Positions 19,856 through 62,578 are shown, counted from the stretch's first letter. The stretch: 64,000 nt of DNA from an uncultured Gammaproteobacteria bacterium (GCA_964486505.1 CAZAMC010000003.1:19505-83504), one strand, 5' to 3'. Notes: generated from the letters alone by a model not told the origin. A program made the numbers and translations.

Positions 19856-19864
19856 TGCTATACT
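19856..19864 (+). promoter_or_regulatory. Extended -10 TGCTATACT, 6 nt upstream of ATG 19871 (leaderless)
   Basis: Plus-strand instance of the recurring motif. Confidence 0.45.
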
Positions 19865-19870
19865 CTGGCC

Positions 19871-20314
19871 ATGCCTTCACTTTTCGCCCTCCTCCTCTTT
19901 GCCCTTCTCACGGCGAGTTTACACGCCTGGATGGAAATTGAGATTGAGGGGCCAAATGGCTGGGCGGCAAAGCTGCCAACGAAACGGTACGACACTACAT
20001 TGGCCCGCCTCATCTTTGGCGTACCCATTACGCGATACCACCTGGTGATGATGGCGACCATTCTGGCATTCGCTCACCTCCCTGCCCTCTTCGTTGCGCC
20101 CTGGACGTTTGCGCATGAACTCGTTGTCTTCGGGTACGTCATCCTTCACTTTACGTTGGAAGACTTCTTGTGGTTTGTGTTCAATCCCGCTTATGGAATT
20201 CGAAAATTTTCTAAGCAGAACATCTGGTGGCACAGCCGCTGGTTCCTTGGCCTACCCCTGGCCTACTGGACTGGACTGCCTGTTGGTCTTGCCTTGCTGC
20301 TGCTAGGCATGTAA
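19871..20314 (+). CDS. Hypothetical integral membrane protein (start moved to MPSLFALL...)
   Basis: 4 predicted TM helices. TGCTATACT extended -10 lies 6 nt upstream of ATG 19871 (leaderless). Confidence 0.45.
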   Translation: MPSLFALLLFALLTASLHAWMEIEIEGPNGWAAKLPTKRYDTTLARLIFGVPITRYHLVMMATILAFAHLPALFVAPWTFAHELVVFGYVILHFTLEDFLWFVFNPAYGIRKFSKQNIWWHSRWFLGLPLAYWTGLPVGLALLLLGM

Positions 20315-20380
20315 CGGCTATTGACGGTGAGCCGGAACGCGCTAAGCTACGGAGAATAAAACTGTTCATTGGAGGAACTC

Positions 20381-20851
20381 ATGCTTGAAAAGGAAGCCTT
20401 TGCCCTACTGACGAAAAGGGTGTGGCACATGCTTGAAAACAACGAGCCGATCAGCCCGTCGGTGACAGATGCGATAAACCACTTAGAGCCACAAGCTTTC
20501 CACGAGCCAGTTGCTCGGGCGGTGCTCACGCAAATGACCCGAGAAATTGGGCGGACTGTGGCCCCCGCCCTAACTGAAACTGGCGATGATTTCATCGGCT
20601 CGGTTGCACTCGCCTTCGCTATCCTTGCGGAATCGGATCGGCCGCCAAAGTACATCGGGTACACCGCCCACACATTTGCGGAAATGCTCATTGAGCAATT
20701 CTGCAAAGCCTACGCACGGTCGGTCAACATGAACGCCCCGGTGAAGGTGGACATCCCAACGTCCGCACCCCGCGCGCTGAGCCTGCGCGAGCGTTTGCAA
20801 GAAATGAAACCCACCGCCTTCGGTCGGTACACATTTCCAGCGAAAATCTGA
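20381..20851 (+). CDS. Hypothetical protein
   Basis: ATG 20381 is preceded by GGAGGA (20371-20376). Followed by an 11-bp-stem terminator. Confidence 0.45.
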   Translation: MLEKEAFALLTKRVWHMLENNEPISPSVTDAINHLEPQAFHEPVARAVLTQMTREIGRTVAPALTETGDDFIGSVALAFAILAESDRPPKYIGYTAHTFAEMLIEQFCKAYARSVNMNAPVKVDIPTSAPRALSLRERLQEMKPTAFGRYTFPAKI

Positions 20852-20858
20852 ACCTCAA

Positions 20859-20894
20859 CTGCCCGAGCCCACCTATGGCTCGGGCAGTTTCTTG
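20859..20894 (+). terminator. Rho-independent terminator (ctgcccgagcc-N7-ggctcgggcag + TTTCTT)
   Basis: Perfect 11-bp inverted repeat followed by a T-run; also abuts the tRNA-Pro 3' end on the other strand. Confidence 0.6.
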
Positions 20895-20904
20895 TAGGTT
20901 CGGG

Positions 20905-20977
20905 TCGGGGTGCCGGGACTTGAACCCGGGGCCTCTTGCACCCCATGCAAGCGCGCTACCAACTGCGCCACACCCCG
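20905..20977 (-). tRNA. tRNA-Pro (anticodon GGG)
   Basis: Manual fold of the reverse complement CGGGGTGTGGCGCAGTTGGTAGCGCGCTTGCATGGGGTGCAAGAGGCCCCGGGTTCAAGTCCCGGCACCCCGA. Anticodon loop AT-GGG-GT; T-loop TTCAAGT; 7-bp acceptor. Confidence 0.8.
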
Positions 20978-21041
20978 ACCAGAACCTACAAAAGCTACGG
21001 TGCATGGTACCCCGTGCCAGCGCATCGAGCAAGACCGATTT

Positions 21042-21905
21042 TTACTTCTCGTCGTCTTCGTGGTGCTTGGCTGACCCAATCATCTGCACCATACCATTGA
21101 AGAGCTCGATGAACGCGTGGTCTGCGCCCCGCCCCTTTAAGGCCAGCTGATGATGGCTGTCGCCGTGCGAGACGTTGTACATACCCTGCCCAAGGATCCG
21201 GAACGGCCGGCTCATGCGCTGGGCAAACCACCAAGAAATGAGAACAAAGACGGGCAAGGCGGCGAGGTCAACCAAGGCAAGTGCACCGAGCACGTCGTTG
21301 CGTTGTGCATTGATGAAACTGGAGGACAGGTCAACACCCAAGACTGCAACGCTCACGCCTTCGGCATTCTTTACGGGGGCGTAGCCCGAGAGCCAGGCGC
21401 CCCACTTATCGTAGGTAATTTCGTCATCGGCGCTCGGTTGGCGCAAGCCTTCTTCCAGCTGGGGGAAGTCGGCCGTATCATACTCCTCGCCCAAGTTTGC
21501 CTTGAGCTCGGCGTCATCAATGGCCCCGTTCCCGTTCTGGTCAGCAGTCTCTTTGCCACTGACGACGAACGTCATGAGGTGCGGCGTACTCGTGGGCCGG
21601 AGCGTGTAGATGTCATCAATTTTCGGGTTGCCATCCATCACTGACTGAAAGTACTTTTCAATCTGCACGTACGCCGAGCTGGTCTGCTGCTCCGGGGACG
21701 TGAGTTGCTCATGCACATCCACCGGGACATTCGCCGCAACGCTCACGGCAATACTCTGCAATGTATCCTGCGTCTCGCGAAAAAGTTTGGTGGTGCGCAC
21801 AAAGTACAGGGCTGCACTTACAGCCGCCGTCATAACCACGAACACAATCAACGTGTGGACGAAGACAAACCGCCGGTAGGGATGAAAACTTGTGTGAATG
21901 TCCAT
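21042..21905 (-). CDS. Membrane sensor-like protein: TM - extracytoplasmic Cache-like domain (Ca-binding DQNGNGAIDDAEL loop) - TM - HAMP-like segment, no output domain
   Basis: Two TM helices bracket a ~180 aa extracytoplasmic domain. The C-terminal ~50 aa after TM2 (RMSRPFRILGQG...) resembles HAMP, and the ORF ends there. Confidence 0.45.
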   Translation of the reverse strand: MDIHTSFHPYRRFVFVHTLIVFVVMTAAVSAALYFVRTTKLFRETQDTLQSIAVSVAANVPVDVHEQLTSPEQQTSSAYVQIEKYFQSVMDGNPKIDDIYTLRPTSTPHLMTFVVSGKETADQNGNGAIDDAELKANLGEEYDTADFPQLEEGLRQPSADDEITYDKWGAWLSGYAPVKNAEGVSVAVLGVDLSSSFINAQRNDVLGALALVDLAALPVFVLISWWFAQRMSRPFRILGQGMYNVSHGDSHHQLALKGRGADHAFIELFNGMVQMIGSAKHHEDDEK

Positions 21906-21948
21906 AGGTATATTCTAGCCTATTCTAGTGGGGGTTACGAGGTGCCAG

Positions 21949-22296
21949 CTATTCCAGAAACACCTGGAGCGCCTCGAGTAGCTCGTGTTTGACGGCATCG
22001 GGCGGTTGGGGGTCTTTCTCTGGATACTGTTGTTTGAGGGCATGCAGGCGAATTTTGATTGCCTCTACAGCCTGCTCCTGGGCAACCAGGGCTTCGGGTG
22101 GGAAGGCGGCTTGGTACTTAGGGCTCGACATGTACGTCTCAATAACAAACACCGTGCTCCCAAAACACGACAGCCAGTCGTTGGCAGTCCGCGAAAATTC
22201 ATCCTCAATTCTGCTCGGGGCCTCGCGAATGGCTTGCCGGAGCTGGGCTACCCGGTCCTCACTAAGTTCTGGAGTGGGACGCTCGCCTTCGGTCAT
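21949..22296 (-). CDS. Hypothetical protein (start moved to MTEGERPTPE..., 115 aa)
   Basis: TGCTATACT extended -10 lies 6 nt upstream of ATG 22296. The ORF-track extension to 22479 would overlap the riboswitch region. Confidence 0.4.
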   Translation of the reverse strand: MTEGERPTPELSEDRVAQLRQAIREAPSRIEDEFSRTANDWLSCFGSTVFVIETYMSSPKYQAAFPPEALVAQEQAVEAIKIRLHALKQQYPEKDPQPPDAVKHELLEALQVFLE

Positions 22297-22302
22297 GCAG
22301 CA

Positions 22303-22311
22303 AGTATAGCA
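22303..22311 (-). promoter_or_regulatory. Extended -10 TGCTATACT, 6 nt upstream of ATG 22296 (leaderless)
   Basis: Minus-strand instance. Confidence 0.45.
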
Positions 22312-22394
22312 CCCGCCAATTTCCCGAAAGGGAACGGTTCGGGATCGCCATTGGCAAGCATCGAGCTGGTCTGCTACACTGCTGCTACAATTCG

Positions 22395-22501
22395 CGTATC
22401 CAGAGTGCTGGGAAGGGAACTCGCCCGCTATCACCCAGCCGGCAACTCGTCCTGCAGCTGCAGGACTCCAGTGCTCCATCGAGCCCGCAAGGGAAGATAC
22501 G
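22395..22501 (+). promoter_or_regulatory. Candidate SAM-I (S-box) riboswitch aptamer in the metK leader
   Basis: P1 CGUAUC...GAUACG. AGAG, GAAGGGA, GCCCG and GGCAAC elements are in SAM-I order. The P3 base GGCA/UGCU is extended by a perfect 16-nt palindrome UCCUGCAGCUGCAGGA. There is a GUGCUCCAUCGAG J3/4-like segment and a P4 CCC-GCAA-GGG. TGCTACAAT -10 at 22383-22391 puts the TSS at P1. Confidence 0.45.
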
Positions 22502-22562
22502 AGGCGCTCATCGTACTACCTTCTGTGTCGCGGAAGGTCTTTCACCGTTAACGACCCTGCGT

Positions 22563-23588
22563 ATGCTCACTACCACCGAATCGGTTACCATTGGCCACCC
22601 GGACAAAATCTGCGACCAAATTTCTGACGCCATTGTCGATGCGTACCTGCTGCAGGATCCCCTTTCCCGCGTAGCCGTGAACAGCATGGGCTCGCACGGG
22701 ACGCTCTTCATCGGCGGGGAGGCGACCTCCAAAGGCGCGGTAGATCATGCCAAGCTGGCGCAAGAGCTGTACCAAGAAATTGGCTACACCGAGGAATTAA
22801 AGATGGTAGTCAACGTTGTGCCGCAGTCGCCGGACATCGCCCAAGGGGTGGACACCGGGGGCGCGGGTGACCAAGGTATTATGTACGGCTACGCAACCGA
22901 TGAAACACCCGAGATGCTCCCCCGCCAAGTTGTAGCCGCGCACGCCCTCACACGGGGGCTCACCGCCCTCCGGGCAAAGCCGGGCTTCGAATGGCTGCGG
23001 CCAGATGGGAAGTCCCAAGTGACCTACGAGGACGGCAGACTAAAAACCATTCTCGTCTCCTGCCAACATACAGAGAACATCGAGCAGCCCGAAATTCAAG
23101 CGCAACTCACCCAACACCTCTTCCAGCCCCTGTTTGGCGACTTGTCGAATGTCGAAGTACTCGTGAACCCCACGGGCCGCTTTGTGCAAGGCGGCTTCTA
23201 CGCCGATACGGGGCTCACCGGCCGCAAAATTATGGTAGACACCTACGGCGGTCTCATTCCGCACGGCGGCGGTGCCTTCAGCGGGAAAGACCCAACCAAA
23301 GTGGATCGCTCGGCGGCGTACTTCTGCCGCTACGTCGCTCGCCAACTGGTGAAGCGTGGCCTCTGCCACCATGCCACGGTGCGCGTTGCCTACGCCATTG
23401 GCCGAGCCGAACCAGTGATGGTCGATGTTGAAGGCGATGGTGATGACGGCCTCCATGAAGCGGTGCAAAAGGAATTCGACTTCCGCCCCAAGGCGATTAT
23501 TGAACGTCTTGACCTGCGAAAACCCATTTACCGCCAGACGGCCATGAACGGCCACTTTGGGAATCCAGACTTCCCCTGGGAAAAGTAG
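22563..23588 (+). CDS. metK: S-adenosylmethionine synthetase (compact 341-aa form)
   Basis: GHPDKICDQISDA, DQGIMYGYA, GGGAFSGKDPTKVDRS motifs. Confidence 0.9.
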   Translation: MLTTTESVTIGHPDKICDQISDAIVDAYLLQDPLSRVAVNSMGSHGTLFIGGEATSKGAVDHAKLAQELYQEIGYTEELKMVVNVVPQSPDIAQGVDTGGAGDQGIMYGYATDETPEMLPRQVVAAHALTRGLTALRAKPGFEWLRPDGKSQVTYEDGRLKTILVSCQHTENIEQPEIQAQLTQHLFQPLFGDLSNVEVLVNPTGRFVQGGFYADTGLTGRKIMVDTYGGLIPHGGGAFSGKDPTKVDRSAAYFCRYVARQLVKRGLCHHATVRVAYAIGRAEPVMVDVEGDGDDGLHEAVQKEFDFRPKAIIERLDLRKPIYRQTAMNGHFGNPDFPWEK

Positions 23589-23651
23589 TATATCGTTGAC
23601 AACGAGTAGGGTAGCGCCTAGAGTTTTGCTACAAACACAACGGAGGAAAAC

Positions 23652-23915
23652 ATGGCACGATTTCCTGGCTACCTCATCGAGAACCCCAATGGGAATAGTC
23701 ACCTCATCCCACTGGTGATCACAACCGAGCACCGTGGACTCTGCATCCGCATCGACGTTCCCAAAGAACACCCGAACTTTGCCAATGCCTCAGACCGACT
23801 CCAGCAGGTTATCCTGGCCTTGCAGGAGGCAGGCATCAAGCACGAGGTACTCCGCGTAAGTTCGAGCCACAACCGGCTGCCCGACTGCGTGTGCATCTCC
23901 TGCGAAAAGGCGTAG
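23652..23915 (+). CDS. Hypothetical small protein (87 aa) with C-terminal CxCxxC
   Basis: Own TTGACA-N17-TAGAGT promoter (23596-23624), GGAGGA SD, and a downstream terminator. Confidence 0.45.
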   Translation: MARFPGYLIENPNGNSHLIPLVITTEHRGLCIRIDVPKEHPNFANASDRLQQVILALQEAGIKHEVLRVSSSHNRLPDCVCISCEKA

Positions 23916-23928
23916 TGCAACTTCAATG

Positions 23929-23955
23929 AAAAAGCCCCGACCGGGGCTTTTTGCT
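23929..23955. terminator. Bidirectional rho-independent terminator aaaaaGCCCCGaccgGGGGCttttt
   Basis: GC stem flanked by an A-run and a T-run, between convergent genes (23652-23915 + and ndk -). Confidence 0.65.
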
Positions 23956-23969
23956 TAGTGGAGTATTGA

Positions 23970-24566
23970 TTAGAACTGGATGTCCTCTTCCATGCGCTTG
24001 TACGCGTGGACTTCATCTTCAGCAAACCAGTTCGCAATTTCGTGCTTAGCCTCTTCCGGGGTTTCTGAAGCATGGAGTATGTTGTGCACCGCGCGCTTTT
24101 CCTTGTTCGCCGCCGCCGCGGAATCCACCGAGTAGTCCCCCCGAATGGTGCCCATGTCGGCCATGTACGGCATCGTTACCCCTGCAATCTTGCGAACCAT
24201 GTCCACCGCGTGCACGCCCTGTACGACCATTTTCACCACCGGACCAGTGGTCATAAAATCCAGGAGCCACCCCCGCACCATCTTGCCAATCTCCAGCAAG
24301 TCGGTGGTGCCGAGTTCGCCTTCCAAATCGTAGCCGTACTTCTCGTAGGTCTTGTGGGTTTTCTCGCCCAGGCGGCGTGTCCAGGCCTCATCCTTGGGGT
24401 AGTGTTTGTCCATTTCTTCTCGTGCGGCCCAAATCATCTTCAATGCAATGACCTTCAAGCCCCGCTGCTCAAAGCGGTGAATGATATCACCAATGAGACC
24501 ACGCTTCACGCCGTCGGGTTTGACCAGAACGAGCGTTCGCTCTTCGCGAGGATGGGGAGCTGCCAT
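23970..24566 (-). CDS. ndk: Nucleoside diphosphate kinase (extended, 198 aa)
   Basis: LVLVKPDGV, NILHASE (active-site His region); ~50 aa insertion. Confidence 0.85.
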   Translation of the reverse strand: MAAPHPREERTLVLVKPDGVKRGLIGDIIHRFEQRGLKVIALKMIWAAREEMDKHYPKDEAWTRRLGEKTHKTYEKYGYDLEGELGTTDLLEIGKMVRGWLLDFMTTGPVVKMVVQGVHAVDMVRKIAGVTMPYMADMGTIRGDYSVDSAAAANKEKRAVHNILHASETPEEAKHEIANWFAEDEVHAYKRMEEDIQF

Positions 24567-24578
24567 AGGTCGGATGCG

Positions 24579-24959
24579 TTACAGTTTGAGAAGTTCCTTC
24601 ACCTTCTCCACGATGGCCGCGGGAGTGAAGTTCGTTTTAATGAAGTAGTCGGTCGCCCCCAGCTGCCGGCCTTTCTGCACGTCTTCTTCCTGGCCGAGGT
24701 TGGTGAGCATGACCACAGGGGTGTCTTTGAATTCTGATGTCTTCCGGAGTTCCTGCAGAACCTGAAAACCATCCATCTTCGGCATGATGATGTCCAGCAA
24801 AATGATATCGGGCTTTTCCTTCTTCACCATTTCCAGGCCGGCAAAACCGTCCGGCGCATGGTGGAGCTCGTACCCTTCCTTTGTGAACTTCGTGGTGTAC
24901 ATCTCGGCGATCAGCGGATCGTCCTCGATGAGCGCGACACTGGGTTTCTGCTTTGCCAT
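24579..24959 (-). CDS. Single-domain response regulator (REC only, CheY-like)
   Basis: DD pair IEDD, phospho-acceptor ILLDIIMP, ...TNLGQEEDVQKG..ATDYFIK. Paralog of 42776-43195. Confidence 0.8.
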   Translation of the reverse strand: MAKQKPSVALIEDDPLIAEMYTTKFTKEGYELHHAPDGFAGLEMVKKEKPDIILLDIIMPKMDGFQVLQELRKTSEFKDTPVVMLTNLGQEEDVQKGRQLGATDYFIKTNFTPAAIVEKVKELLKL

Positions 24960-24965
24960 AGTCCT

Positions 24966-24994
24966 ACCCTAGCATGCGTTTTTCAGCCATGCAA
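24966..24994 (-). promoter_or_regulatory. TTGCAT-N17-TAGGGT promoter ending 6 nt upstream of the REC ATG (leaderless), inside the gatA 3' end
   Basis: Read on the minus strand: TTGCATggctgaaaaacgcatgcTAGGGTaggactATG. Confidence 0.4.
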
Positions 24995-26464: not shown

Positions 26465-26466
26465 AC

Positions 26467-26775
26467 TCAGGTTGTGGGCGGTGAAACGACGAATGACCCA
26501 TCCCGCGTGGGCGCTTGGGCTACCAGACGAACTGCATCTGCCGGCATGGCTATGTCTTCTCGCACATCATACGGGGTAACTGGGCTACGACGCTGGCCCT
26601 CAACTGCTGGAACGTCGCTCTGGTTAATTTGGTCAAGGTAATCCAGCACGCGGGAAAGTTGCTCCGCGTACATCTGACGTTGGGCGAGTGTTTGCGAAAG
26701 CCGTACAAGCTTGCCTAGGTGGACGATGTCAGCGTCGGTAAAATGCATAGGCACAGTATACCACCCACGGTGCAT
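26467..26775 (-). CDS. gatC: Asp/Glu-tRNA amidotransferase subunit C
   Basis: ~95-102 aa, directly upstream of gatA. ...DIVHLGKLVRL...L..IL.Y...I pattern. Start may instead be the ATG at 26748. Confidence 0.65.
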   Translation of the reverse strand: MHRGWYTVPMHFTDADIVHLGKLVRLSQTLAQRQMYAEQLSRVLDYLDQINQSDVPAVEGQRRSPVTPYDVREDIAMPADAVRLVAQAPTRDGSFVVSPPTT

Positions 26776-26850
26776 TGACAGGATAGCCAGAAAACTCTAC
26801 GCTCACCGGAATACAAAAGTATCCACACCACCAGCAGGGAGGCTGATGCA

Positions 26851-27480
26851 TTGAAAAGGAGTAAGGCCGCACCGAAACACGGCGAGCGCCAGCTCTCATC
26901 TGACCCGACCATCGCTCGCGCCCAACTCGGGGATCAGGTTGCTCTTGGTGAACTTACCCAAGAGTACCGGGATCGCTGTACGAACTTCCTCTTCAGAATC
27001 CTTCAGGACGCTGAACTCGCCGCGGAAGTATACCAAGACGTGTGCGTGAAGCTCGTCGGGTACATCGCCAACTACGATGCTACCTATCAATTCACTACCT
27101 GGCTGTACACGGTAGCGAAGAACATGGCCTTCAACCACTTACGGCGGAGGAAGAAGTACGAATTCGTTGACATTGAGACCATTGCCGGCGAGCTGCCCAG
27201 CCCCGATGGTCGGCCAGATGTCCATCTGCACCGTAGCGACATCACCCGCGCCGTGGCAGAGGCTGTAGCCTCGTTGCCAGAGAAAATGCACGAAGCGTTT
27301 ACCCTCGTACGGCTGCGTGGGTTCAGCTACGAAGAGGCGGCGATGAAGCTTGACCTGCCCATTGGGACGGTAAAGTCACGCGTGACACGCGCGCACGAGG
27401 AAATCCGCACCTTCTTCAGACTGTACTACCCCGAGCTCATCCCCCCGCGCTCTCGCGCAAAAAAACTCGCTCGTTTCTAA
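26851..27480 (+). CDS. ECF-type RNA polymerase sigma-70 family factor
   Basis: Region 2 (YQDVCVKLV...TWLYTVAKNMAFNHLRRR) and region 4 HTH (LRGFSYEEAAMKLDLPIGTVKSRVTRA). TTG start 9 nt after GGGAGG. Confidence 0.8.
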   Translation: MKRSKAAPKHGERQLSSDPTIARAQLGDQVALGELTQEYRDRCTNFLFRILQDAELAAEVYQDVCVKLVGYIANYDATYQFTTWLYTVAKNMAFNHLRRRKKYEFVDIETIAGELPSPDGRPDVHLHRSDITRAVAEAVASLPEKMHEAFTLVRLRGFSYEEAAMKLDLPIGTVKSRVTRAHEEIRTFFRLYYPELIPPRSRAKKLARF

Positions 27481-37423: not shown

Positions 37424-37432
37424 AGTATAGCA
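37424..37432 (-). promoter_or_regulatory. Extended -10 TGCTATACT, 8 nt upstream of ATG 37415 (leaderless)
   Basis: Motif recurs at six-plus gene starts in this window. Confidence 0.45.
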
Positions 37433-39702: not shown

Positions 39703-39711
39703 AGTATAGCA
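39703..39711 (-). promoter_or_regulatory. Extended -10 TGCTATACT, 6 nt upstream of the pilin A2 ATG (leaderless)
   Basis: Immediately follows the pilin A1 terminator hairpin. Confidence 0.45.
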
Positions 39712-39736
39712 AAAGAGCGCCTCGTGAGCGCTCTTT
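39712..39736 (-). terminator. Hairpin AAAGAGCGC-N7-GCGCTCTTT after pilin A1
   Basis: Perfect 9-bp stem followed by a T-rich run on the minus strand. Confidence 0.5.
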
Positions 39737-40257: not shown

Positions 40258-40414
40258 GTCTGTCACCTCCCTTCGCTTTATGCGGCGAGGCGGATGTCTG
40301 TTTGGGGGATCAGTGATCAGTACTGAACCACCCATCCTCCCTGTCGCCCAGGTAGCTCGACAGCCACTGGGTAACGCAGTTCAGGACAATCCGCAGCCAC
40401 GACAAGATAGATAG

Positions 40415-40423
40415 AGTATAGCA
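40415..40423 (-). promoter_or_regulatory. Extended -10 TGCTATACT upstream of pilin A1 (long leader)
   Basis: Same 9-mer as the leaderless promoters. Confidence 0.4.
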
Positions 40424-40452: not shown

Positions 40453-41661
40453 CTACGTAATGGCGTTGCTCACGTTGTAGATTGGCAGCAAAATTGAAGA
40501 AACCATGAAGCCCACACCCACGCCCATGAGGAGCAAAATCACCGGCTCAATGAGCGCAACCAGGTTCCGGACGAGGGCGTCTAGCTCGTTCTCGTAGAAC
40601 TGCGCCACTTTGAGCAACACCTGATCCAACCGACCCGACTGTTCACCCACGCTCATCATCTGGGAAAGCATGAGCGGCACTTGCTTGCTGCGGACGAATA
40701 CGGTGGTAATGGAATTGCCGTCTTCAACCTCCCGAATGGTCTTGTCGAGGATGCCCGAGTACACGTGGTTGCCTACCACTTCCGAGGTAATGCCCAGGGC
40801 CTGGGAAATCGGCACACCGGAGGCCAAGAGTGTGGACAGCGACCGGGCCAGGCGGGTGAGGTAAATCATGGTAAAAATCTTGCCACCAATGGGCATCCGG
40901 AGCTTCACAATGTCCAAAATCCGTCGGCCATTCGCGGTCTTCCGCCAGTAGTAGAAGCCCACAACCACGCCGACGAAGAGCGCAATGACAATGTACCACT
41001 GGTTGCGCATGAAGTTGCTCGTCCAGATCAGGAGCTTGGTTGTAAGCGGGAGCTCCACGCCACCCTGGGTGAAAATTTCAAGAAGTTTTGGCAGGACAAA
41101 AACAACCATCACAATTGCTACCACGACCACCGCGAAGAGCACGACCGCCGGGTAAATGAAGGCCCCCCGGACACGGCTCATGATGCCGTAATCTTTCTCG
41201 CGCTGGTCGGCAAGGTAGATGAGGACTTCGTCCAGCTTGCCGGTGGTTTCACCAGATCGGATCATGGACACGAAGAAGGTGTTGAACACGTTCGGGTAAC
41301 GCGCCATTGCTGCCGAAAGCTTGGCGCCGCCATCGACTTCATCCAGGATGTCCGACAAAATCATCTTGAAGTGCACGTTCTTGGTTTGGCGCACCAGAAT
41401 GCGCAGGGCGCGGACGATTGGCACGTTAGCCGAAATCATCACGGAAAGCTGCCGAGCAAAAATGACTTGCTCCTTAACGGTTACCCGACGGAACAAATCC
41501 GCACTGAAGAACTTCGCGCTCTTCGCCCGCTCTTTCAGGCTCACAATGGTCAGCTGCTTCTCCCGTAGGGTGTCGTACGCAACGGACTCCGATGGCGCGA
41601 CAACGGCACCTTCAACAGTCTGGCCTCCTAAATTTTTGGCGCGGTAATCGTAGATCGCCAT
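40453..41661 (-). CDS. pilC: Type IV pilus platform protein PilC (GspF family)
   Basis: 402 aa; two GspF repeats; 3 TM. Confidence 0.9.
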   Translation of the reverse strand: MAIYDYRAKNLGGQTVEGAVVAPSESVAYDTLREKQLTIVSLKERAKSAKFFSADLFRRVTVKEQVIFARQLSVMISANVPIVRALRILVRQTKNVHFKMILSDILDEVDGGAKLSAAMARYPNVFNTFFVSMIRSGETTGKLDEVLIYLADQREKDYGIMSRVRGAFIYPAVVLFAVVVVAIVMVVFVLPKLLEIFTQGGVELPLTTKLLIWTSNFMRNQWYIVIALFVGVVVGFYYWRKTANGRRILDIVKLRMPIGGKIFTMIYLTRLARSLSTLLASGVPISQALGITSEVVGNHVYSGILDKTIREVEDGNSITTVFVRSKQVPLMLSQMMSVGEQSGRLDQVLLKVAQFYENELDALVRNLVALIEPVILLLMGVGVGFMVSSILLPIYNVSNAIT

Positions 41662-53367: not shown

Positions 53368-53376
53368 ATTGTACCA
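53368..53376 (-). promoter_or_regulatory. Extended -10 TGGTACAAT, 22 nt upstream of the giant-protein ATG
   Basis: Follows the terminator of the upstream adhesin-like gene. Confidence 0.4.
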
Positions 53377-53441: not shown

Positions 53442-55250
53442 CTAGGTCGTAGGGCCAGTTACGTCTCCACCAATAATGGATCCGCACACACACCCGGAAG
53501 ACGGGGCCGAGTTATAGCACCCGGCTGGGTATGTATCGACCTTGCTTCCAACAGTGCAGGTTATCGTGCCATTGCAACACGAGCGACCGGGCCCACACGG
53601 ACCACCCGCCATACACGTATTCCGCGTAACGACTGGGCGGGTGTAACTTGCGCACTCGTTCGTTGGGCCGGGGCAAGTGGGGTGGAAAAGCCGCATCGTC
53701 TCGGTATAGGTGGTGTTGAACACGTGAACCACGGTGTTCGTCGTATCCGAGCAGTTGGTTCCTGCTGCCGGTGTGATGTCATTGCTCCCGTCCGTTAGCA
53801 GGTCAACGCGGCAGGAAACCCCAGTAATCCCGCCGTAGTTGGTCGAGTCAGTAATGTTCACGAACTGCGTGAGTTCAGACCGCTGCGCTACAGAGAATAT
53901 GGGCCGAAACATATTAATGTTCACGGACTTCGTTGTGCCTGGCGGGCCAACATCATCGCTGATTGTGAGTTTCGGCGACTTCACACCGCTCGTTACACCA
54001 GAAGGGTAGCGCACTGTGGGGTTTGCCACAGTTCCCGCAAAGACAAAGCCTCCGGCGTTCACACAAGTCGCATTCGGGTCTGTGCTCTGGCAATCAACAT
54101 CGTTCAAGGCGTCTTCACCGAAGTCCCAGGCGTACGTAGCGGTGCCGGTAACCGTAACCGCGGAGGTCGTGAAATTGAAGTTGCTTGTATACCCATTCCC
54201 CGTTGGATCAACCGCTAAGGTAAAGTTTGGTGCACCACAGACGGCGGCCTCATCCCGATACCGCAAGCTCACCCGGACTTTCGTATTCGCATTGGCAGTC
54301 TGCAGGTACAGCTTGCCGTAGAACACGCCACTCGAGCATTCACGGTACTCGGCAAAGTTGGTCGCGTCCACGGCGGGACGCCAGAAAATGTTCGGCGCGG
54401 TTGTATCCGCGTCGTACATCACGTCCAGACCAACGATGTGGAACGTATTGTCAGTTGTTATTTGAACGTAGTCGGGGCTTACGCTGTTGGTAAAGTCAAC
54501 AAGCTTCCCTGTGGGCCCAACGTTGCTAACGTCGAAAGTCCGCTCGTAGACACCGCCGGATGGTGATGGGTAGTTTTGGTCACGAATCGAATTCGCCACA
54601 GCGCCCACTGCCGCGCCCCCAACTTGTAACGTCCCCACGATGTTCACATTGCCCGTGAGTGTCGTGGTACCGGCAACCGTTAGGTTCCCTCCACCAATAA
54701 TGTCAACGTTGCCTTGGAACTGCCCGGCAGGCGAACCAAGTGCGTAAATACCGCGACCGCCAACACTCGTGGCTTGAATCGCATCGCCGGTCCCTGCCGT
54801 AGCACTAGCTTGCAGTGCCGCAGCGCCGGTGTCAGTCTTCGCGACAATTGCAAACGTGTCTGTGCTGTAGACATTTATAGCTTGACCAGCTTGCGCGGCT
54901 CGCTGCAATGAGTACGCCACCCCAGGAGCAGGGTCGGGCGTTTCACCCAAGAGGAGGTTCCCCAAAACCTGGAGCTTCTTGTTCGCCGTAGACTGGCCCA
55001 CGTACACCGGTGTCTGCACAACCTGCGCTGTAGTTTTATCACTTGGCGCCAGGAAGAGCGGGCTACTGGTATTACAGCCGCTCGGGCCTGTGGGATCGTT
55101 CGGGTTGCAGGTGGGATCCCGGAATTCCGTAGCAGAGGTCTGCGCGTACACGCGTATTCCAAAACCAGCCACAATGCCAACCATACCGACCAGGACATAC
55201 GTGGCCCAACGTGGCCAAGTGACTGCCGTTGCACGGGTGCTTGTAGGCAT
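53442..55250 (-). CDS. Secreted/anchored adhesin-like protein (602 aa) with beta-helix-like G/T/V-rich repeats and Cys-rich C-terminal domain
   Basis: Start reset to MPTSTRATAVTWPRWATYVLVGMVGIVAGF (cat at 55248-55250). GNLTVAGTTTLTGNVNIVGTLQVGG. C-terminal has more than 14 Cys in 90 aa. Confidence 0.5.
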   Translation of the reverse strand: MPTSTRATAVTWPRWATYVLVGMVGIVAGFGIRVYAQTSATEFRDPTCNPNDPTGPSGCNTSSPLFLAPSDKTTAQVVQTPVYVGQSTANKKLQVLGNLLLGETPDPAPGVAYSLQRAAQAGQAINVYSTDTFAIVAKTDTGAAALQASATAGTGDAIQATSVGGRGIYALGSPAGQFQGNVDIIGGGNLTVAGTTTLTGNVNIVGTLQVGGAAVGAVANSIRDQNYPSPSGGVYERTFDVSNVGPTGKLVDFTNSVSPDYVQITTDNTFHIVGLDVMYDADTTAPNIFWRPAVDATNFAEYRECSSGVFYGKLYLQTANANTKVRVSLRYRDEAAVCGAPNFTLAVDPTGNGYTSNFNFTTSAVTVTGTATYAWDFGEDALNDVDCQSTDPNATCVNAGGFVFAGTVANPTVRYPSGVTSGVKSPKLTISDDVGPPGTTKSVNINMFRPIFSVAQRSELTQFVNITDSTNYGGITGVSCRVDLLTDGSNDITPAAGTNCSDTTNTVVHVFNTTYTETMRLFHPTCPGPTNECASYTRPVVTRNTCMAGGPCGPGRSCCNGTITCTVGSKVDTYPAGCYNSAPSSGCVCGSIIGGDVTGPTT

Positions 55251-55288: not shown

Positions 55289-55319
55289 GGTATACTCCAG
55301 GGGTTAGCGGCAGTATACC
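55289..55319. promoter_or_regulatory. Inverted repeat GGTATACT-N15-AGTATACC in a divergent promoter region
   Basis: Each arm contains TATACT/TATACC -10 hexamers on opposite strands. Same arms are found upstream of clpC. Confidence 0.45.
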
Positions 55320-57366: not shown

Positions 57367-57377
57367 CCGAACGACGT

Positions 57378-57403
57378 ACGGGTTTTGACAAAACCCGTTT
57401 TTT
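57378..57403 (+). terminator. Rho-independent terminator ACGGGTTTTG-aca-AAAACCCGT + T6
   Basis: After the htpX stop. Confidence 0.6.
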
Positions 57404-57598
57404 GCGCTATACTTACTGCCGTAGAGTGAGTTTCATCTCAGCATCTACACGTAGGACACGCCTCGCGTGTCTGAAAAACAGAAATCAAAAGTTCTTGAGC
57501 CTGCACCCCATTGATGGCTCATCAAACATAGATGTTTGAAGAGCGTCATCCTTTCCTGGTTGGCGCTTCTTCTCTTTGGGCAATAAACGCATTGACAC

Positions 57599-57623
57599 GG
57601 TATACTATACCCAGTAGTATACC
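57599..57623 (+). promoter_or_regulatory. Inverted repeat GGTATACTA-N7-TAGTATACC overlapping the clpC -10 region
   Basis: Perfect 9-bp arms; 9 nt upstream of ATG 57632. Confidence 0.45.
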
Positions 57624-57631
57624 GAGAACCA

Positions 57632-60121
57632 ATGCCCCCCATCCTCAGCAAGTTCACTACCCACCTGCGCGAGGTCTTGGTAAAAGCCACGAACTTCGCG
57701 GCTGGCAATCGGGCTCGCACCACCGGCCCGGAACATTTGCTGTACGCTCTCGGCGTACAGAAAGGCTCCATTGCCTACGAAATCCTACAGAAAGCCAACC
57801 TCAACCTAGACCGCGTGCGCCAGAGCATCCAGCTGCGGGATAGCGGCGCCGACCTGCAGCCCGCCACCACGGCCCCCGCAAAACCACCGCTCGCCCCAGA
57901 CAGCAAAGCTGCAATTGAGAAGAGTGGCATCATCGCCGCGAAGTACAACCATCGCTACATTGGCACGGAGCACGTCCTCTACGGCTTGCTGAAGCTCCAG
58001 AGCCCCTTCGTCCAGAAAATGTGGCGCGAGCAGAACATTGACCCCAGCGAAATGCTGGGCCAGGTCGTGCTCGTGCTTCGCTCAACGTCAAAATTCCCCG
58101 ACCTCACCGAACTCTTTGAAGACGTGAAAGAAGAGAAGAGTGAACGCCGGAACCAGAGCAAAACACCCGCGCTGGATTTCTTTGCGACGGACTTAACGGA
58201 TCCCAAGCTGCAAGCCACCATTGATCCGGTGATTGGCCGAAAGGCGGAAATTGAACGCTTGGTACACATCCTCTCCCGTCGCACGAAGAACAACCCAGTG
58301 CTCCTTGGTGACCCGGGTGTTGGGAAAACCGCCATCGTGGAAGGGCTGGCCAAGAAGGTAGTAAACGGGGAGGTGCCGGAGGCCTTGCAGGGCAAACGCA
58401 TCCTGCGGCTGGACCTCTCGCTCATTGTGGCGGGCACCATGTACCGCGGCGAGTTTGAATCCCGACTCAAGCAAATTATTGAGGAGATCACTGCTGACCC
58501 ACGCATCATTGTCTTCATTGACGAGATTCACACTATTATCGGGGCCGGTTCTGCCTCGGGCAGCATGGACGCGGCGAACATTCTTAAGCCGGCATTGGCT
58601 CGCGGTGAACTCCGCGTCATTGGCGCTACCACGCTGGATGAGTACCGCAAGCACATTGAGTCCGACGCCGCCCTCGAGCGCCGCTTCCAGCCCATTATTG
58701 TTCCGGAACCAACGCTCGCCGAGACCGAACAAATTCTGGAGGGGCTCCGGCCGAATTACGAACGCTTCCACCAAGTGAGCATTTCCCGCGAAGCCATTGT
58801 AGCGGCGGTTGAGCTTTCGGAACGCTACATTCAGGATAAGTTCCTGCCCGACAAAGCCATTGACCTCATTGACGAAGCAGCAGCGAAGCGAAAAGTGGAA
58901 CGCGGCGGTTCCCCAGAGGCCAAGAAGATTCGCACCCTGGAACTCCAGCTCGAGGACTTGGAAGTGCAGAAAGACAAGGCTGTTCTCCAAGAACGTTTCG
59001 AAGAAGCCCTTACCCTCAAAGGGGCGGCCGAGAAAGCGCGGGAAAAACTTGCGCAGCTCATCAACGGAAGTCCCACTAAACACAAGACCCTGGCCACCAT
59101 TACGCGCAAAGACATTGCCGACGTGGTGAGCCGGATTACCAGTGTCCCCCTCCGCGACCTGGTGAGTGAAGAACGAGACCGCCTACTCAAACTGGAAGAT
59201 CGCCTAAAGGCCCACGTCATTGGGCAAGATGAGGCTGCGCACGCCATTGCCGATGCCATCCGCCGCTCCCGCGTGGGCTTGCGCAACCACAACCGGCCCA
59301 TTGGCTCATTCATCTTCATGGGCCCCAGCGGCGTGGGGAAAACTGAAATGGCCAAAGTCCTGGCCCGAGAAATATTTGAGGACGAGAGCGCACTCATCCG
59401 CATTGACATGAGCGAGTTTGGTGAGAGTTTCAACGTCTCCAAGCTCATTGGCGCGCCGGCGGGCTACGTGGGCTACAAAGAGGGTAACAAGCTCACCGAG
59501 CCAGTCCGTCGCAAACCCTACTCCGTGGTGCTCTTCGACGAAGTGGAAAAGGCTCATCCCGACGTGTTCAACCTCCTCCTGCAAGTACTCGAGGATGGAC
59601 AGCTCACCGATGGCACGGGCAAGCAGGTGAACTTCAAAAACACCATCATCATCTTCACCAGCAACGTTGGGCTGGAAAGCCTCAACCAGACGGCGAAGCT
59701 CGGTTTCGAAACCGGATCGGCAGACGCGCGGAAAGTGGCCGAGGCGCGCTTTGAAGAAATCAGCCACGAAGTAACCGGCCAACTCCACGAGCAGTTCCGA
59801 CCAGAATTCCTCAACCGCATCGACAAGGTTATTGTCTTCCGACCGCTCACTGCTAAGGACGTAAAACAGATTGTTCAGCTTCAGGTTGCTGAACTGCAAG
59901 TACTGGCGGCCGCCCAGGGCTTTAAGCTCACTCTAACCCCGGCGGCCACCAAGCGTATTGCCGAGCTCGGCTTCTCGCCCGAACAGGGGGCGCGCGCCAT
60001 TCGCAAAGTCATCCAGGATGAGGTGGAAAACCCCTTGGCCCGGGCGATTCTCGAGAAGAAGTTTGCACGTGGCGCAGCCATTACCGTGAATGCCGGTAAG
60101 CACGGCTTCACCATCAAATAA
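57632..60121 (+). CDS. clpC: ATP-dependent Clp protease ATP-binding subunit ClpC/ClpB-type AAA+ chaperone
   Basis: Two Clp_N repeats and two AAA modules ([15 protein letters not shown]; [15 protein letters not shown]). Confidence 0.9.
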
Positions 60122-60125
60122 CCCT

Positions 60126-60776
60126 ATGATTGAACGGGCGCGGGCGGCGGCCACACGAGTTGGTCGTTTTTTGCTGGATGCCCTGGCGCCCCACCGTTGC
60201 CCCGGCTGCGGGAAGGTGGGTGTGGTGGTGTGCGAAAACTGCTGGCAGGCCATGCCCAAGCGTGCCCAGGTGACCCCGGGCCCATCCCCCCTCCTCATGA
60301 CGGTAACCGCCACAACCTACGATGAGCCAATAACCCAGCAGCTCATCCAGTGCTTGAAGTACGAAGGCATTCGAGACGCCGCCACTCCGCTGGGCGAACT
60401 CTTGGCCACCGCCCTGGAACCTATGCGGCAAGAGGGCGACGTGCTCGTGCCAATCCCCTTGCACCCGCGGCGCGAGCGCGAACGCGGATTCAACCAAAGT
60501 CTCCTGCTTGCCGAAACCATTGCCAAGAAGACCCAGCTGCCCGTGGCCCAGCCCCTGCAGCGCTCCCGCCCAACCAAACCCCAGGTAGAGTGCTCGGCCG
60601 AAGAGCGACGTACAAACCTGGAGGCGGCCTTTACAGCCGAGCCCGTAACGGCGAACCGGATTATTCTCGTGGACGACGTAACCACGACGAGCACCACCTT
60701 TGCAGAAGCGGCAAAAGCCCTTCGTAAAGTCACCGATGCACCAATCATCGGCTTAGCGGTGGCGCGGGGTGGGTAG
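60126..60776 (+). CDS. comFC: ComF family protein (ComFC-like phosphoribosyltransferase with N-terminal zinc ribbon)
   Basis: CPGCG...CENC; PRTase motif ILVDDVTTTSTT. Confidence 0.75.
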   Translation: MIERARAAATRVGRFLLDALAPHRCPGCGKVGVVVCENCWQAMPKRAQVTPGPSPLLMTVTATTYDEPITQQLIQCLKYEGIRDAATPLGELLATALEPMRQEGDVLVPIPLHPRRERERGFNQSLLLAETIAKKTQLPVAQPLQRSRPTKPQVECSAEERRTNLEAAFTAEPVTANRIILVDDVTTTSTTFAEAAKALRKVTDAPIIGLAVARGG

Positions 60777-60789
60777 TGCCAACACGTGC

Positions 60790-60822
60790 AAATAAAAACA
60801 GGGACGACGAGAATCGTCCCTG
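60790..60822 (-). terminator. Hairpin CAGGGACGA-N6-TCGTCCCTG + TTTTTATTT (minus strand)
   Basis: Follows the minus-strand gene 60829-61131. Confidence 0.5.
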
Positions 60823-60828
60823 CCGTAC

Positions 60829-61131
60829 CTACGCAGCTTCCAAGAGAAGCTGAAAGTGTTCCTGCAAACAGCGTTCAGTTTTTTTCCAGAGCCTGGCTGC
60901 TTTCCTCTGGTGTCCGGCATCCTCAGCGGCCTCTGCCTGGTCGTGCCAACCTGCTGCCTCGACTCGCTTAGCTACTGCAGCAAAGGCTTGCGAAGCACTA
61001 AGCCCAAACTGGAGCTGGTAGAGCTTTGACATAGTTTTCAGCAACTTGCCTTTCTGCCTACGGTGGTGGGCCTGCCACCAACTCACTTCGTAGAAAGCAA
61101 GGGTTCTTGCATGTTTGGAAATTCGTACCAT
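60829..61131 (-). CDS. Hypothetical protein (100 aa)
   Basis: Has TTGACA-N17-TAGGAT promoter (61168-61196) and GAGGT SD. Confidence 0.35.
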   Translation of the reverse strand: MVRISKHARTLAFYEVSWWQAHHRRQKGKLLKTMSKLYQLQFGLSASQAFAAVAKRVEAAGWHDQAEAAEDAGHQRKAARLWKKTERCLQEHFQLLLEAA

Positions 61132-61231
61132 TTTTACCTCACATTTTTAGCTTTCTGCTTTCGGTAAATCCTAAGGCGCCCCTTTGGTAATGTCAACCTG
61201 AATAATAAATAAGAGAGCCTGAACAGCTCTC

Positions 61232-61798
61232 TTATTCTAATGAACCTTGCCGCTCTGCAAGAACGAGGTACGCGCAGAGGTCGGCCTTCACCGCGCAGCT
61301 GAGGGGTTCTGGAACTTCCACAAACTCCACAATGTCCAAGTAGTGCAGTTCCTGGAGATGCGTGATGCTCGGGTGTCCTTGGCGCAGAGTGAGCTGCAAC
61401 AGCTCCCGCTCCACATCAGCCGAGTTGAGCTCGAGGACTGCTGCGTCCCGAGCGTGAACGGGTACGTGGCGACCCACTTCCTCCCACCCCCGCGGTGTGA
61501 GAAAGCAAACACTGCGCGCGTTAAACTTTACTACGCCCTTCACGTACCAGCGTCTCTGCGCAACCCAACCCGCCTCTGCCTTCACTGCCGCTTCCAAACG
61601 CGGCAGGTCTACATTGAGTACCTTTAAAGAGTACAGGCAGACAAGTGCGAGGGCTACAACTGCAAGGCAAAGCGCAATCAGTTGACCACGTGCCGCCTGC
61701 GCCCCGCCGGATGACGTACAGTAGGTGTACAGCGCCAGGCATCCAAGAACAACGAGACTGGCGACTTTAATCACCTGAATCTTACGGTGCATGGTCAT
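61232..61798 (-). CDS. Hypothetical membrane protein (188 aa)
   Basis: Two N-terminal TM. TTGACA-N16-TAGGGT promoter (61837-61864), GGAGGG SD. Confidence 0.4.
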   Translation of the reverse strand: MTMHRKIQVIKVASLVVLGCLALYTYCTSSGGAQAARGQLIALCLAVVALALVCLYSLKVLNVDLPRLEAAVKAEAGWVAQRRWYVKGVVKFNARSVCFLTPRGWEEVGRHVPVHARDAAVLELNSADVERELLQLTLRQGHPSITHLQELHYLDIVEFVEVPEPLSCAVKADLCAYLVLAERQGSLE

Positions 61799-61932
61799 GT
61801 GCCCTCCGCTGTAAATTGTTTCAATGTGCTACCGCGACCCTAGCATGGTACTCGGTACTGTCAACTACTCAAATAAGACGCTCAGCAAAAAACCAGCCGG
61901 GTAACGGACTGGCGGTGGGGGCAGGACAGAGT

Positions 61933-62009
61933 TGGTGCGCCCGGCAGGATTTGAACCTACGACCTCAAGCTCCGCAAGCTTGCGCTCTATCCAACTGAGC
62001 TACGGGCGC
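61933..62009 (-). tRNA. tRNA-Arg (anticodon read as GCG), CCA encoded
   Basis: RC GCGCCCGTAGCTCAGTTGGATAGAGCGCAAGCTTGCGGAGCTTGAGGTCGTAGGTTCAAATCCTGCCGGGCGCACCA; cloverleaf folds. Terminator hairpin plus T6 at 61887-61912. Confidence 0.75.
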
Positions 62010-62056
62010 GTGTACGTGAACACTATCTGTACCATGGCGCGGAAGCCATGGCAAGG

Positions 62057-62560
62057 TTAAATTTTGAACATGCGCCCCAGCCGATCGGTAAGGTCTTCAG
62101 CTTCCCGCTCCAGATCCTCTCGGATGTACTTCTGGAGAACGGTACGCACCTTTAATGGATTTTCTTGTTGCAATGGAATGGGGTAGGAGGGACGGAATCC
62201 ACTCTTAAAAGTTAAGTACAGCACTTTAACTTCCGGTGGTTCAAACGCAATCCAAAAAGTGGCAAACTCCCGGAAGCGGTACACCCGGTCGCCGATTGTG
62301 ATACCGTCCTCATGCACGGAAAATTGCACCTTCACCGGCTGAAGGAAGTCGCGGGCGACCATTGTTACGACGATCAGGATGATGATGATGGAGAACAGGA
62401 AATTTCTCGTGACGATGGCGTAGATAAACAGCCCTACAGCCAGTAACCCAGAAACTGCGTACCAGCCCATGCCGCGTTCGTACCGGTGGAAGGAAGGAAA
62501 TTCCCACTTCAGAAGCGTCTGGGGTTGTGTGGTTCGATTAGGGTTGCTACTCTGATCCAT
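62057..62560 (-). CDS. Hypothetical membrane protein with two TM and PH-like C-terminal domain (start moved to MDQSSNP...)
   Basis: TGCTATACT -10 lies 9 nt upstream of ATG 62560. Confidence 0.4.
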   Translation of the reverse strand: MDQSSNPNRTTQPQTLLKWEFPSFHRYERGMGWYAVSGLLAVGLFIYAIVTRNFLFSIIIILIVVTMVARDFLQPVKVQFSVHEDGITIGDRVYRFREFATFWIAFEPPEVKVLYLTFKSGFRPSYPIPLQQENPLKVRTVLQKYIREDLEREAEDLTDRLGRMFKI

Positions 62561-62569
62561 ACGTGGCAG

Positions 62570-62578
62570 AGTATAGCA
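62570..62578 (-). promoter_or_regulatory. Extended -10 TGCTATACT, 9 nt upstream of ATG 62560 (leaderless)
   Basis: Same motif family. Confidence 0.45.

Follow-up and report, generated by a model that had tools for sequence, protein, structure and literature searches.

How are transcription and translation started in a bacterium in which few genes carry a Shine-Dalgarno (SD) sequence? The question is raised by a 64-kb stretch of DNA from an uncultured bacterium (the window, by which we mean the whole stretch analyzed), in which the nonamer TGCTATACT recurs a few nucleotides (nt) upstream of start codons. A first-pass annotation had read this nonamer as the extended -10 element of promoters that yield leaderless mRNAs, coexisting with a second architecture in which promoters with a TTGACA-type -35 element precede SD leaders. 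In this work, we analyzed the frequency, position and conservation of the element in the window and in related loci. The results indicate that TGCTATACT is the main promoter box of this organism and, probably, a leaderless extended -10 promoter of the housekeeping sigma-70-type polymerase in its lineage.

The source itself is read as an uncultivated member of the Patescibacteria (candidate phyla radiation, CPR), a Parcubacteria-like metagenome-assembled genome (MAG). This reading follows from PilC (40453-41661), which is 78-91% identical to proteins of MAGs labelled Patescibacteria group, Parcubacteria or Kerfeldbacteria, and from two sources that contain exact copies of window proteins, namely a metagenome assembly of Logan and a single contig at NCBI. 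The GC content of the window, ~57%, is unusually high for a CPR bacterium. Orthologs were obtained by protein search and contig look-ups. The comparison covered ~190 kb of relatives' loci (designated below by L numbers), or ~250 kb together with the window, short of a whole genome. A metagenome scan with the hydrolase encoded at 19095-19832 returned distant homologs only (23-40% identity). A generic promoter/terminator scan, which cannot detect promoters devoid of a -35 element, gave terminator counts modestly above those of shuffled sequences (17 vs 11.9 ± 3.0, and 9 vs 4.4 ± 2.3).

Recurrence and form of the extended -10 box

The exact nonamer TGCTATACT is present in six copies in the window, against 0.09 expected, and none of 100 dinucleotide shuffles reached six. 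Five of these copies precede an ATG opening an open reading frame (ORF) of 115-167 codons: (i) 19856-19864 (+), 6 nt before ATG 19871 of a 147-aa membrane protein, predicted to be leaderless; (ii) 22303-22311 (-), 6 nt before ATG 22296 of a gene that diverges from the metK promoter and encodes a 115-aa protein of unknown function; (iii) 37424-37432 (-), 8 nt before ATG 37415 of a 138-aa membrane protein of the pilus cluster, where the box begins 3 nt past the stop codon of the upstream gene; (iv) 39703-39711 (-), 6 nt before ATG 39696 of a second prepilin; and (v) 62570-62578 (-), 9 nt before ATG 62560 of a 167-aa protein of unknown function and 16 nt from a divergent tRNA-Ser gene. No GGAGG-type motif lies between box and ATG at any of the five sites. 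The sixth copy, 40415-40423 (-), drives the leadered mRNA of the major pilin gene. All six are in sense orientation upstream of genes. The coordinates, downstream ATGs, spacers and lack of SD sequences given in the first-pass annotation were thus borne out, and its variant sites (22383-22391, 53368-53376 on the minus strand, 55289 and 57599) and its TTGACA/TTGCAT sites (23596-23624, 61168-61196, 61837-61864 and 24966-24994) are likewise all present.

The excess extends to related forms. The wider family TGNTATAMT occurs nine times in the window against 0.92 expected, and in six of these cases an ORF of 60 or more codons begins with an ATG located 5-9 nt past the box (positional null 0.025, binomial P=2e-8). 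Among the hexamers alone, TATACT was counted 15 times against a null of 5.4, and TATAAT five times against a null of 6.8. The flanks of the six TGCTATACT sites (45 nt upstream and 28 nt downstream) are 26% identical, which is the random level, so that the nonamer is a short signal and not part of a dispersed repeat.

In all six copies the box has the form of an extended -10 element, with TG one base upstream of a TAnnnT hexamer (TGnTATACT), and the intervening base of such boxes is almost always C or G. Most orthologs retain the TGn in the form TGC or TGG; in L006, L009 and L010 it takes the form GTG. Three further TGn sites show leaderless spacing. Two had been overlooked in the first-pass annotation: TGGTAGGAT (19839-19847, -), 6 nt before ATG 19832 of an alpha/beta hydrolase, and TGGTATACT (26755-26763, -), 6 nt before ATG 26748 of gatC, which is followed by gatA. 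The former, predicted to be leaderless, combines a TAGRRT-type hexamer with TGn and has no -35 element. The third is TTGCAT-N17-(TGC)TAGGGT (24966-24994, -), 6 nt before ATG 24959 of a response regulator gene followed by ndk and also predicted to be leaderless; its box is TGCTAGGGT, and its TTGCAT is a partial -35 element (3/6 match to TTGACA). The best -35 match amounted to 2-4 of six positions at the six TGCTATACT sites and 1-3 of six at the three additional ones, the null mean being 2.3. As judged from sequence, the extended -10 box would therefore be independent of a -35 element. At 39703 there is no space for one, since the box adjoins the T-tract of the terminator hairpin (-15.3 kcal/mol) that ends the major pilin gene.

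Geometry and conservation of the leaderless starts

The position of the box was assessed by a spacing test free of gene calls, in which we took every ATG beginning an ORF of 100 codons or more and counted the boxes that end at a distance d before it. In the window, TGNTANNNT was found five times at d=6 against a background of ~0.35 per bin; in the relatives' loci it was found seven times at d=6 against ~1, and TA[TC]A[AC]T ten times against ~0.9 (Poisson P=4e-8). The enrichment near gene starts for which the first-pass annotation had proposed a genome-wide check is thus a sharp peak at one distance in both data sets, within the ~250 kb covered.

The canonical transcription start is the seventh nucleotide after the -10 hexamer (PMC12641261). 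The spacers of the eight leaderless sites measure 6, 6, 6, 6, 6, 6, 8 and 9 nt, and in the six that are exactly 6 nt long the A of the ATG is that seventh nucleotide, so that the transcript would begin on the start codon itself. The major pilin promoter provides an internal ruler. Its box is conserved in all close relatives, and when eight genomes are aligned the 6 nt after the hexamer are variable, whereas invariance begins at the seventh nucleotide, an A (40408, the predicted +1). This is what is expected if the conserved RNA begins there, and it coincides with the place taken by the A of the ATG in the genes with 6-nt spacers.

Divergent gene pairs point in the same direction. The boxes at 19839 and 19856 stand back-to-back, one for each of the divergent ATGs 19832 (-) and 19871 (+), which are 38 nt apart; in L026, 35 nt separate the ATGs of the NUDIX and hydrolase genes, and both ATGs have a box at a distance of 6 nt. 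Intervals of this length, each holding two boxes, cannot accommodate leaders.

Footprints of the box were found in the orthologs of five genes, whose genomes range from 42 to 59% GC: the hydrolase (3/3 genomes), gatC (2/2), the response regulator (2/2), the 138-aa protein (7/8) and the second pilin (4/7). The box and its distance are conserved at orthologous genes, and in all five sets the spacer sequence is not. The hydrolase orthologs read TGGTAGCAT-6-ATG in L023 and TGCTAGCAT-6-ATG in L026, and their spacers differ (ggaggt in the window, agagct in L023, aggcac in L026). The window spacer ggaggt, 1 nt from ATG 19832, is the only SD-like one among the leaderless sites and is not conserved in the orthologs. 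The gatC ortholog of L023 has TGCTACAAT-6-ATG despite a different upstream neighbour gene, and the response regulator ortholog of the same locus has TGGTAGCAT-9-ATG. For the 138-aa protein, a -10 box lies 6-8 nt before the ATG across a variable spacer: TGCTATACT-8 in the window, L004 and L011, GTGTATACT-6 in L006, L009 and L010, and TATAAT-6 in L008. For the second pilin (window and six relatives), the box is 6-8 nt from the ATG in the window, L004, L012 and L008.

The start codons to which these distances refer are supported from several sides: by the prepilin leader peptide of the second pilin (MEKRRSG preceding FTLIE), by the Pfam domain boundaries of GatC and the response regulator, and by ortholog N-termini together with public gene calls of 115-, 159- and 245-aa products, an independent public call yielding the same 115-aa product from ATG 22296. 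In the case of the 147-aa protein, ATG 19871 is fixed as the start by the L026 ortholog, whose alignment begins at residue 1 and in which a stop codon is found 3 nt upstream. The claim that the box moves every start codon inward from the ORF-based call applies to four of the five sites; ATG 37415 was already the first start of its ORF. The correction rule derived from it is valid, but gene callers already apply it: public calls contain the 115-aa and 159-aa products (Logan assemblies) and the 245-aa hydrolase (NCBI).

Finally, leaderless boxes were found only at the first genes of transcription units: five of the eight lie in divergent intergenic regions and the remaining three just after the stop codon or terminator of the upstream gene. 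No TATACT-type box precedes an operon-internal gene in the window, including those within the ribosomal-protein operon. Taken together, these observations uphold the proposal that the box is a promoter -10 element placing the transcript start at or within ~2 nt of the start codon of genes without an SD sequence.

Promoters with a -35 element and rival explanations

A second type of promoter carries a -35 element. TTGACA-N16-18-TANNNT is present at six exact sites in the window against 0.62 expected, all six intergenic. TTGACG variants lie at 20321, 19034 and 17290. Several promoters of this second type lead into SD sequences. On the plus strand, TTGACA-N17-TAGAGT (23596-23624) is followed by a leader with GGAGG 5 nt before ATG 23652, TTGACG-N16-TAAGCT (20321-20348) by one with GGAGG before ATG 20381, and TTGACA-N17-TACGCT (26775-26803) by one with GGGAGG before the TTG at 26851 of a gene for a sigma factor of the extracytoplasmic function (ECF) type (26851-27480). 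On the minus strand, TTGACA-N17-TAGGAT (61168-61196) is followed by GAGGT before ATG 61131, TTGACA-N16-(TGC)TAGGGT (61837-61864) by GGAGG before ATG 61798, and TTGACG-N17-TACCGT (19034-19062) by GGAGG 6 nt before GTG 18995 of an M50 peptidase gene. Other promoters with a -35 element lead elsewhere: TTGACA-N17-TAGTAT (57592-57620, +) lies 11 nt before ATG 57632 of a Clp ATPase gene, with a predicted leader of ~4 nt, and the tuf and rpsL promoters, TTGCCA-N17-(TGG)TATGCT (14110-14138, -) and TTGACG-N17-(TGG)TACATT (17290-17318, -), have leaders of ~50 and ~80 nt, respectively, without SD.

Among ~27 first-in-unit genes, we counted eight leaderless ones with TGn, ~4 that are probably leaderless, seven that are SD-led (a GGAGG-type motif 4-9 nt upstream of the start) and ~7-8 that are leadered without SD. 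A TTGAC(A/G) -35 element precedes six of the seven SD-led genes vs two of the other 20 (Fisher P=6e-4), in a grouping made post hoc with n=27. In the relatives' loci, TTGAC[AG]-N16-18-TAnnnT was found at one site only, too few for a test of this association. The L023 ortholog of the 20321 promoter (L023 9916-) reads TTGACA-N16-TAGACT and is followed by AGGAG, so that both features are kept in the sole available pair.

The suggestion of two coexisting architectures therefore holds in so far as a second promoter type with TTGAC(A/G) is found mostly before SD-led genes, but the two are neither discrete nor strictly coupled. If they were two regulons, read by different sigma factors, with TATACT(TGn) serving leaderless and SD-less genes and TTGACA-N17-TAGRRT the SD-led ones, promoter and translation mode would go together. 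The association described above, its retention in the L023 pair (AGGAG there, GGAGG at 20321-20348) and the occurrence in the window of an ECF-type sigma gene with a TTGACA promoter of its own are in favor of this possibility, which we nevertheless consider unlikely. Besides the post hoc nature of the grouping, the mixed cases argue against it: TGCTATACT drives the ~150-nt SD leader of the pilin, TTGCAT-N17-TGCTAGGGT is leaderless at 24959, TGGTAGGAT is leaderless at 19832 without a -35 element, TTGACA-N17-TAGTAT is nearly leaderless, and TTGACG and TTGCCA promoters have SD-less leaders at rpsL and tuf. Furthermore, TTGACA with TAnnnT is the ordinary consensus of a primary sigma factor rather than an ECF-type motif, and the offsetting of a weak -10 by a -35 element is standard promoter logic. 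The two-architecture proposal had also overlooked a third class, the largest, which has no SD at all. Promoter type does not define leader type. As for the sigma factor encoded at 26851, the idea that it reads the TTGACA class found no support; the protein is of the ECF type, and ECF promoters look different from that class.

Alternatively, the TATACT box could itself be transcribed and, as part of the mRNA, serve as a ribosome-binding or enhancer element that is rich in A and U and unrelated to the SD, following the logic described for 'group B' genomes, with the promoters located further upstream. SD sequences are so rare here (~7-9 of 68 starts) that some non-SD signal must exist, and the L009, L011 and L005 orthologs of the second pilin retain the box at 16-22 nt from the ATG. 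We hold this explanation to be very improbable, however, since the box is absent before operon-internal genes (the ribosomal-protein operon has only C/T-rich spacers) and is found where promoters are needed, in the 33-102 nt between divergent genes and immediately behind terminators. In addition, it is the polymerase and not the ribosome that contacts the conserved TG located two bases before the hexamer, the same nonamer lies ~165 nt upstream of the pilin ATG with conservation beginning at its predicted +1, and no other promoters could fit between divergent ATGs that are separated by 35-38 nt. That the recurrences reflect chance, a dispersed repeat or the ends of mobile elements has a negligible probability: although only the nonamer is identical at all six sites, as such an origin might allow, the shuffles never reached six copies, the orientation is always sense and upstream of genes, and the box is conserved in orthologs across 42-59% GC. 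The dispersed-repeat version in particular is ruled out by the random-level identity of the flanks.

The leaderless extended -10 promoter thus remains the preferred explanation, and the following mechanism can be proposed. A housekeeping sigma-70-type RNA polymerase would read TGn plus TATACT without a -35 element and start ~7 nt downstream of the hexamer; as the box is 6 nt (six genes), 8 or 9 nt before the ATG, the transcripts of these eight genes would begin with AUG or with a leader of 1-2 nt, and the ribosome with its initiator tRNA would bind the 5'-terminal AUG without an SD interaction. The same box would also drive the leadered mRNAs of the major pilin and metK, and a weak -10 of the TAGRRT type could be compensated by either TGn or a TTGAC(A/G) -35. 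What look like promoter classes would then be modular combinations of standard elements used by one polymerase rather than separate systems.

Several points weigh against this explanation or narrow it. The loose pattern TGNTANNNT is not enriched overall (66 vs 60 expected), and the informative part is therefore only the strong consensus together with its position. The organism being uncultivated, we infer leaderless status from geometry and conservation, and likewise the position of the 5' ends, the sigma factor involved and leaderless initiation of the 70S type rank as inferences only. The 8- and 9-nt spacers (37415 and 62560) may correspond to leaders of 1-2 nt instead of strictly leaderless mRNAs. 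Orthologs of the 22296 and 62560 genes, whose products have no family assignment, were not found among the fetched loci. Lastly, in the second-pilin orthologs of L009 (12893-12926), L011 (9680-9709) and L005 (~14090-14121), the box-ATG distance is 16-22 nt with no SD, so that strict leaderlessness is not obligatory for these genes. Judging from these loci, leaderless starts and short SD-less leaders seem interchangeable in this clade.

Further possible leaderless starts lack TGn. TAGAAT (21912-21917, -) is placed 6 nt before ATG 21905 of a 287-aa protein and has no comparative support, and similar arrangements are TATCCT-6-ATG 62897 and TAGCAT-5-ATG 18017 (rpmB). The variant TGGTACAAT (53368-53376, -) lies 22 nt before the in-frame ATG 53345 of a 1415-aa ORF and would give a short leader without SD.

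Neighbouring leaders, start-codon context and known systems

The major pilin gene is preceded by a conserved 5' untranslated region (UTR) of ~150 nt (40258-40408, -), with the perfect SD GGGAGGTGA (40263-40271) 5 nt before ATG 40257, which is the true pilin start rather than 40335. Leader and SD, like the box, are retained by all close relatives; the SD reads GGGGGTGA in L007 and L012, and its distance from the ATG is 5-7 nt. This conservation argues that the canonical anti-SD persists, a suggestion drawn from the pilin leader, as the 16S gene lies outside the window. The UTR contains blocks that are invariant in the eight genomes, AUCUUGUCGUGG at the 5' end, GAUGGGUGGUUCAGUACUGAUCACUGAUCCCC and GAAGGGAGGUGACAG. 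In the modelled consensus fold, the 5' end would pair with the stretch lying between SD and start codon, and the SD would be sequestered; there is very little covariation (two pairs), and the single-sequence fold has a z of -2.4. With no Rfam match for this UTR, it could be an unclassified cis-regulatory element. At the same locus, the T-tract of a terminator is directly abutted by a -10 box (39712-39735, -; gcgctcttt followed immediately by TGCTATACT), a compact terminator-promoter junction that is kept across L004, L006, L009, L010, L011 and L012; a second such arrangement is seen at 57377-57402 (+).

The metK promoter region (22351-22391, +) comprises TTGGCA-N18-(TGC)TACACT (22351-22380) and an overlapping second box, TGCTACAAT (22383-22391). 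These boxes, TGCTACACT and TGCTACAAT, precede a leader that carries a probable divergent SAM-I aptamer (22393-22503, +), which scored 28.2 bits with RF00162 against a gathering threshold of 44.4 (E=2e-4 in a local search, model positions 1-108 of 108), that is, below the Rfam threshold. The box at 22383-22391 had been proposed to feed the riboswitch; the one at 22351-22380 fits the riboswitch 5' end (22393) better. Within the leader (22393-22562, +), the aptamer is followed by a short hairpin (ccttc...gaagg) and tcttt, which resemble a terminator, and the metK start has no SD.

Inverted repeats were noted at two places. GGTATACT-N15-AGTATACC (55289-55319) lies between divergent genes starting at 55250 (-) and 55344 (+), and GGTATACT-N9-AGTATACC (57599-57623) overlaps the TTGACA-N17-TAGTAT promoter just upstream of the Clp ATPase ATG 57632. 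Such repeats represent either two -10 boxes that face each other or the operator of some regulator. The best full-consensus promoter of the window, TTGACA-N17-TATACT, is located in the same region (57385-57631, +), right after the upstream terminator (arrangement at 57377-57413), and is followed by ~180 nt without a convincing ORF before the next promoter. An Rfam E-value search of 57370-57650 gave no match, and this stretch upstream of Clp might encode a small RNA or belong to a long leader of the Clp gene. At 62545-62594, the promoter of the 62560 (-) gene overlaps a head-to-head candidate tRNA-Ser promoter, TGCTACTCT (62545-62553, +), which would fall within the first codons of the 62560 protein gene.

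Most genes of the window, leadered or operon-internal ones included, fall in the class without SD. In a curated set of 68 starts (ATG in 66), the GGAGG-type SD counted above leaves ~90% without one, making this the commonest class. It includes the whole S10-spc ribosomal-protein operon, tuf, fusA, rpsL and most pilus genes (window 211-17201, -, and elsewhere). The sequence before the ATG is rich in pyrimidines, as in ttaactccctATG and taagctcctATG, with C at -3 in 35 of 68 starts, C at -2 in 35, T at -1 in 44 and G at -1 in one. Position -1 of 86 ortholog starts in the relatives was T in 41, C in 30, A in 11 and G in four, and the ribosomal-protein genes of L023 and L026 follow the same pattern. 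CCT directly before ORF-opening ATGs was counted 17 times in the window vs ~6.5 at other offsets. It is tempting to speculate, albeit tentatively and with more doubt than confidence, that this clade runs initiation nearly without SD, a third to a half of its units being leaderless through TG(C/G)TATACT, nearly all other genes, tuf and the ribosomal-protein operon among them, using a C-C-U/AUG context, and SD being reserved for a few genes such as the pilin with its SD-sequestering UTR. If true, such a start-site code would be without a described counterpart in any phylum and would operate in ribosomes already known to be reduced.

Leaderless layouts have precedents. 'Group C' of GeneMarkS-2 comprises genomes in which 25-50% of operons have a Pribnow box at a distance of 6-8 nt from the gene start; 90% of Actinobacteria and 97% of Deinococcus-Thermus belong to it (PMC6028130). 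A leaderless layout with a nearby Pribnow box is described for Mycobacterium, Streptomyces, Corynebacterium and Deinococcus-Thermus (PMC6028130, PMC3160421, PMC3898074). The window shares with group C a TAnnnT -10 ending 6-9 nt before the ATG, the lack of SD, the restriction to first genes, the coexistence with SD-led genes and a comparable proportion (8-12 of ~27 units here vs the 25-50% reported); all of its sequence hallmarks (-10 spacing, SD absence, first genes only) were thus found. It differs in that the lineage is Patescibacteria/CPR, the -10 is sharper (TG(C/G)TATACT vs a loose TANNNT), and the remaining genes mostly have no SD, an element that group C genomes employ for their leadered genes.

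Extended -10 promoters are known from Escherichia coli, Firmicutes and mycobacteria. The boxes described here resemble them in the TG one base before the hexamer, in a -35 match at background level and in the abutment of some boxes to a terminator, but the hexamer is TATACT and not TATAAT. The 'E. coli-like' consensus of Streptomyces and other actinobacteria is TTGAC(Pu)-N16-18-TAG(Pu)(Pu)T, and TTGACA-N16-17 followed by TAGAGT, TAGGAT or TAGGGT has the same form, a resemblance only, given that the phylum is different. The TGn promoters of sigma-70-family polymerases are cited in PMC12641261. In Bacteroidetes, initiation is SD-independent, corresponding to 'group B' of GeneMarkS-2 (PMC3155529). 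As in that group, most genes of the window, including those for ribosomal proteins, have no SD and a few keep a canonical one; unlike in it, pyrimidines rather than A prevail in the context (C at positions -3 and -2, T at position -1) and leaderless starts are frequent. The single motif before all genes, operon-internal ones included, that marks group B was not found here.

Our full-text searches of the literature collection consulted found no paper on leaderless genes, promoters or SD usage in Patescibacteria, CPR or Saccharibacteria. A study of Nanosynbacter lyticus TM7x is reportedly the only CPR transcription-start dataset cited. The mechanism itself is already known, being textbook knowledge in Actinobacteria and Deinococcus, and what is new is apparently the lineage and the sharpness of the consensus; its value lies in the extension to a deep-branching group and not in a new principle. 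The more unusual by-products are the nearly SD-free gene set with its C-C-U/AUG context and the conserved, structured pilin leader.

As hardly any members of the CPR/Patescibacteria have been brought into culture, their promoters and the signals that start translation have remained essentially without characterisation. A sharp consensus at a fixed distance of 6 nt helps to define transcription units and to correct gene starts in these MAGs, and suggests promoter parts for the few genetic systems being developed in CPR. Such a consensus also indicates that the reduced ribosomes of CPR bacteria would routinely handle leaderless and SD-less mRNAs.

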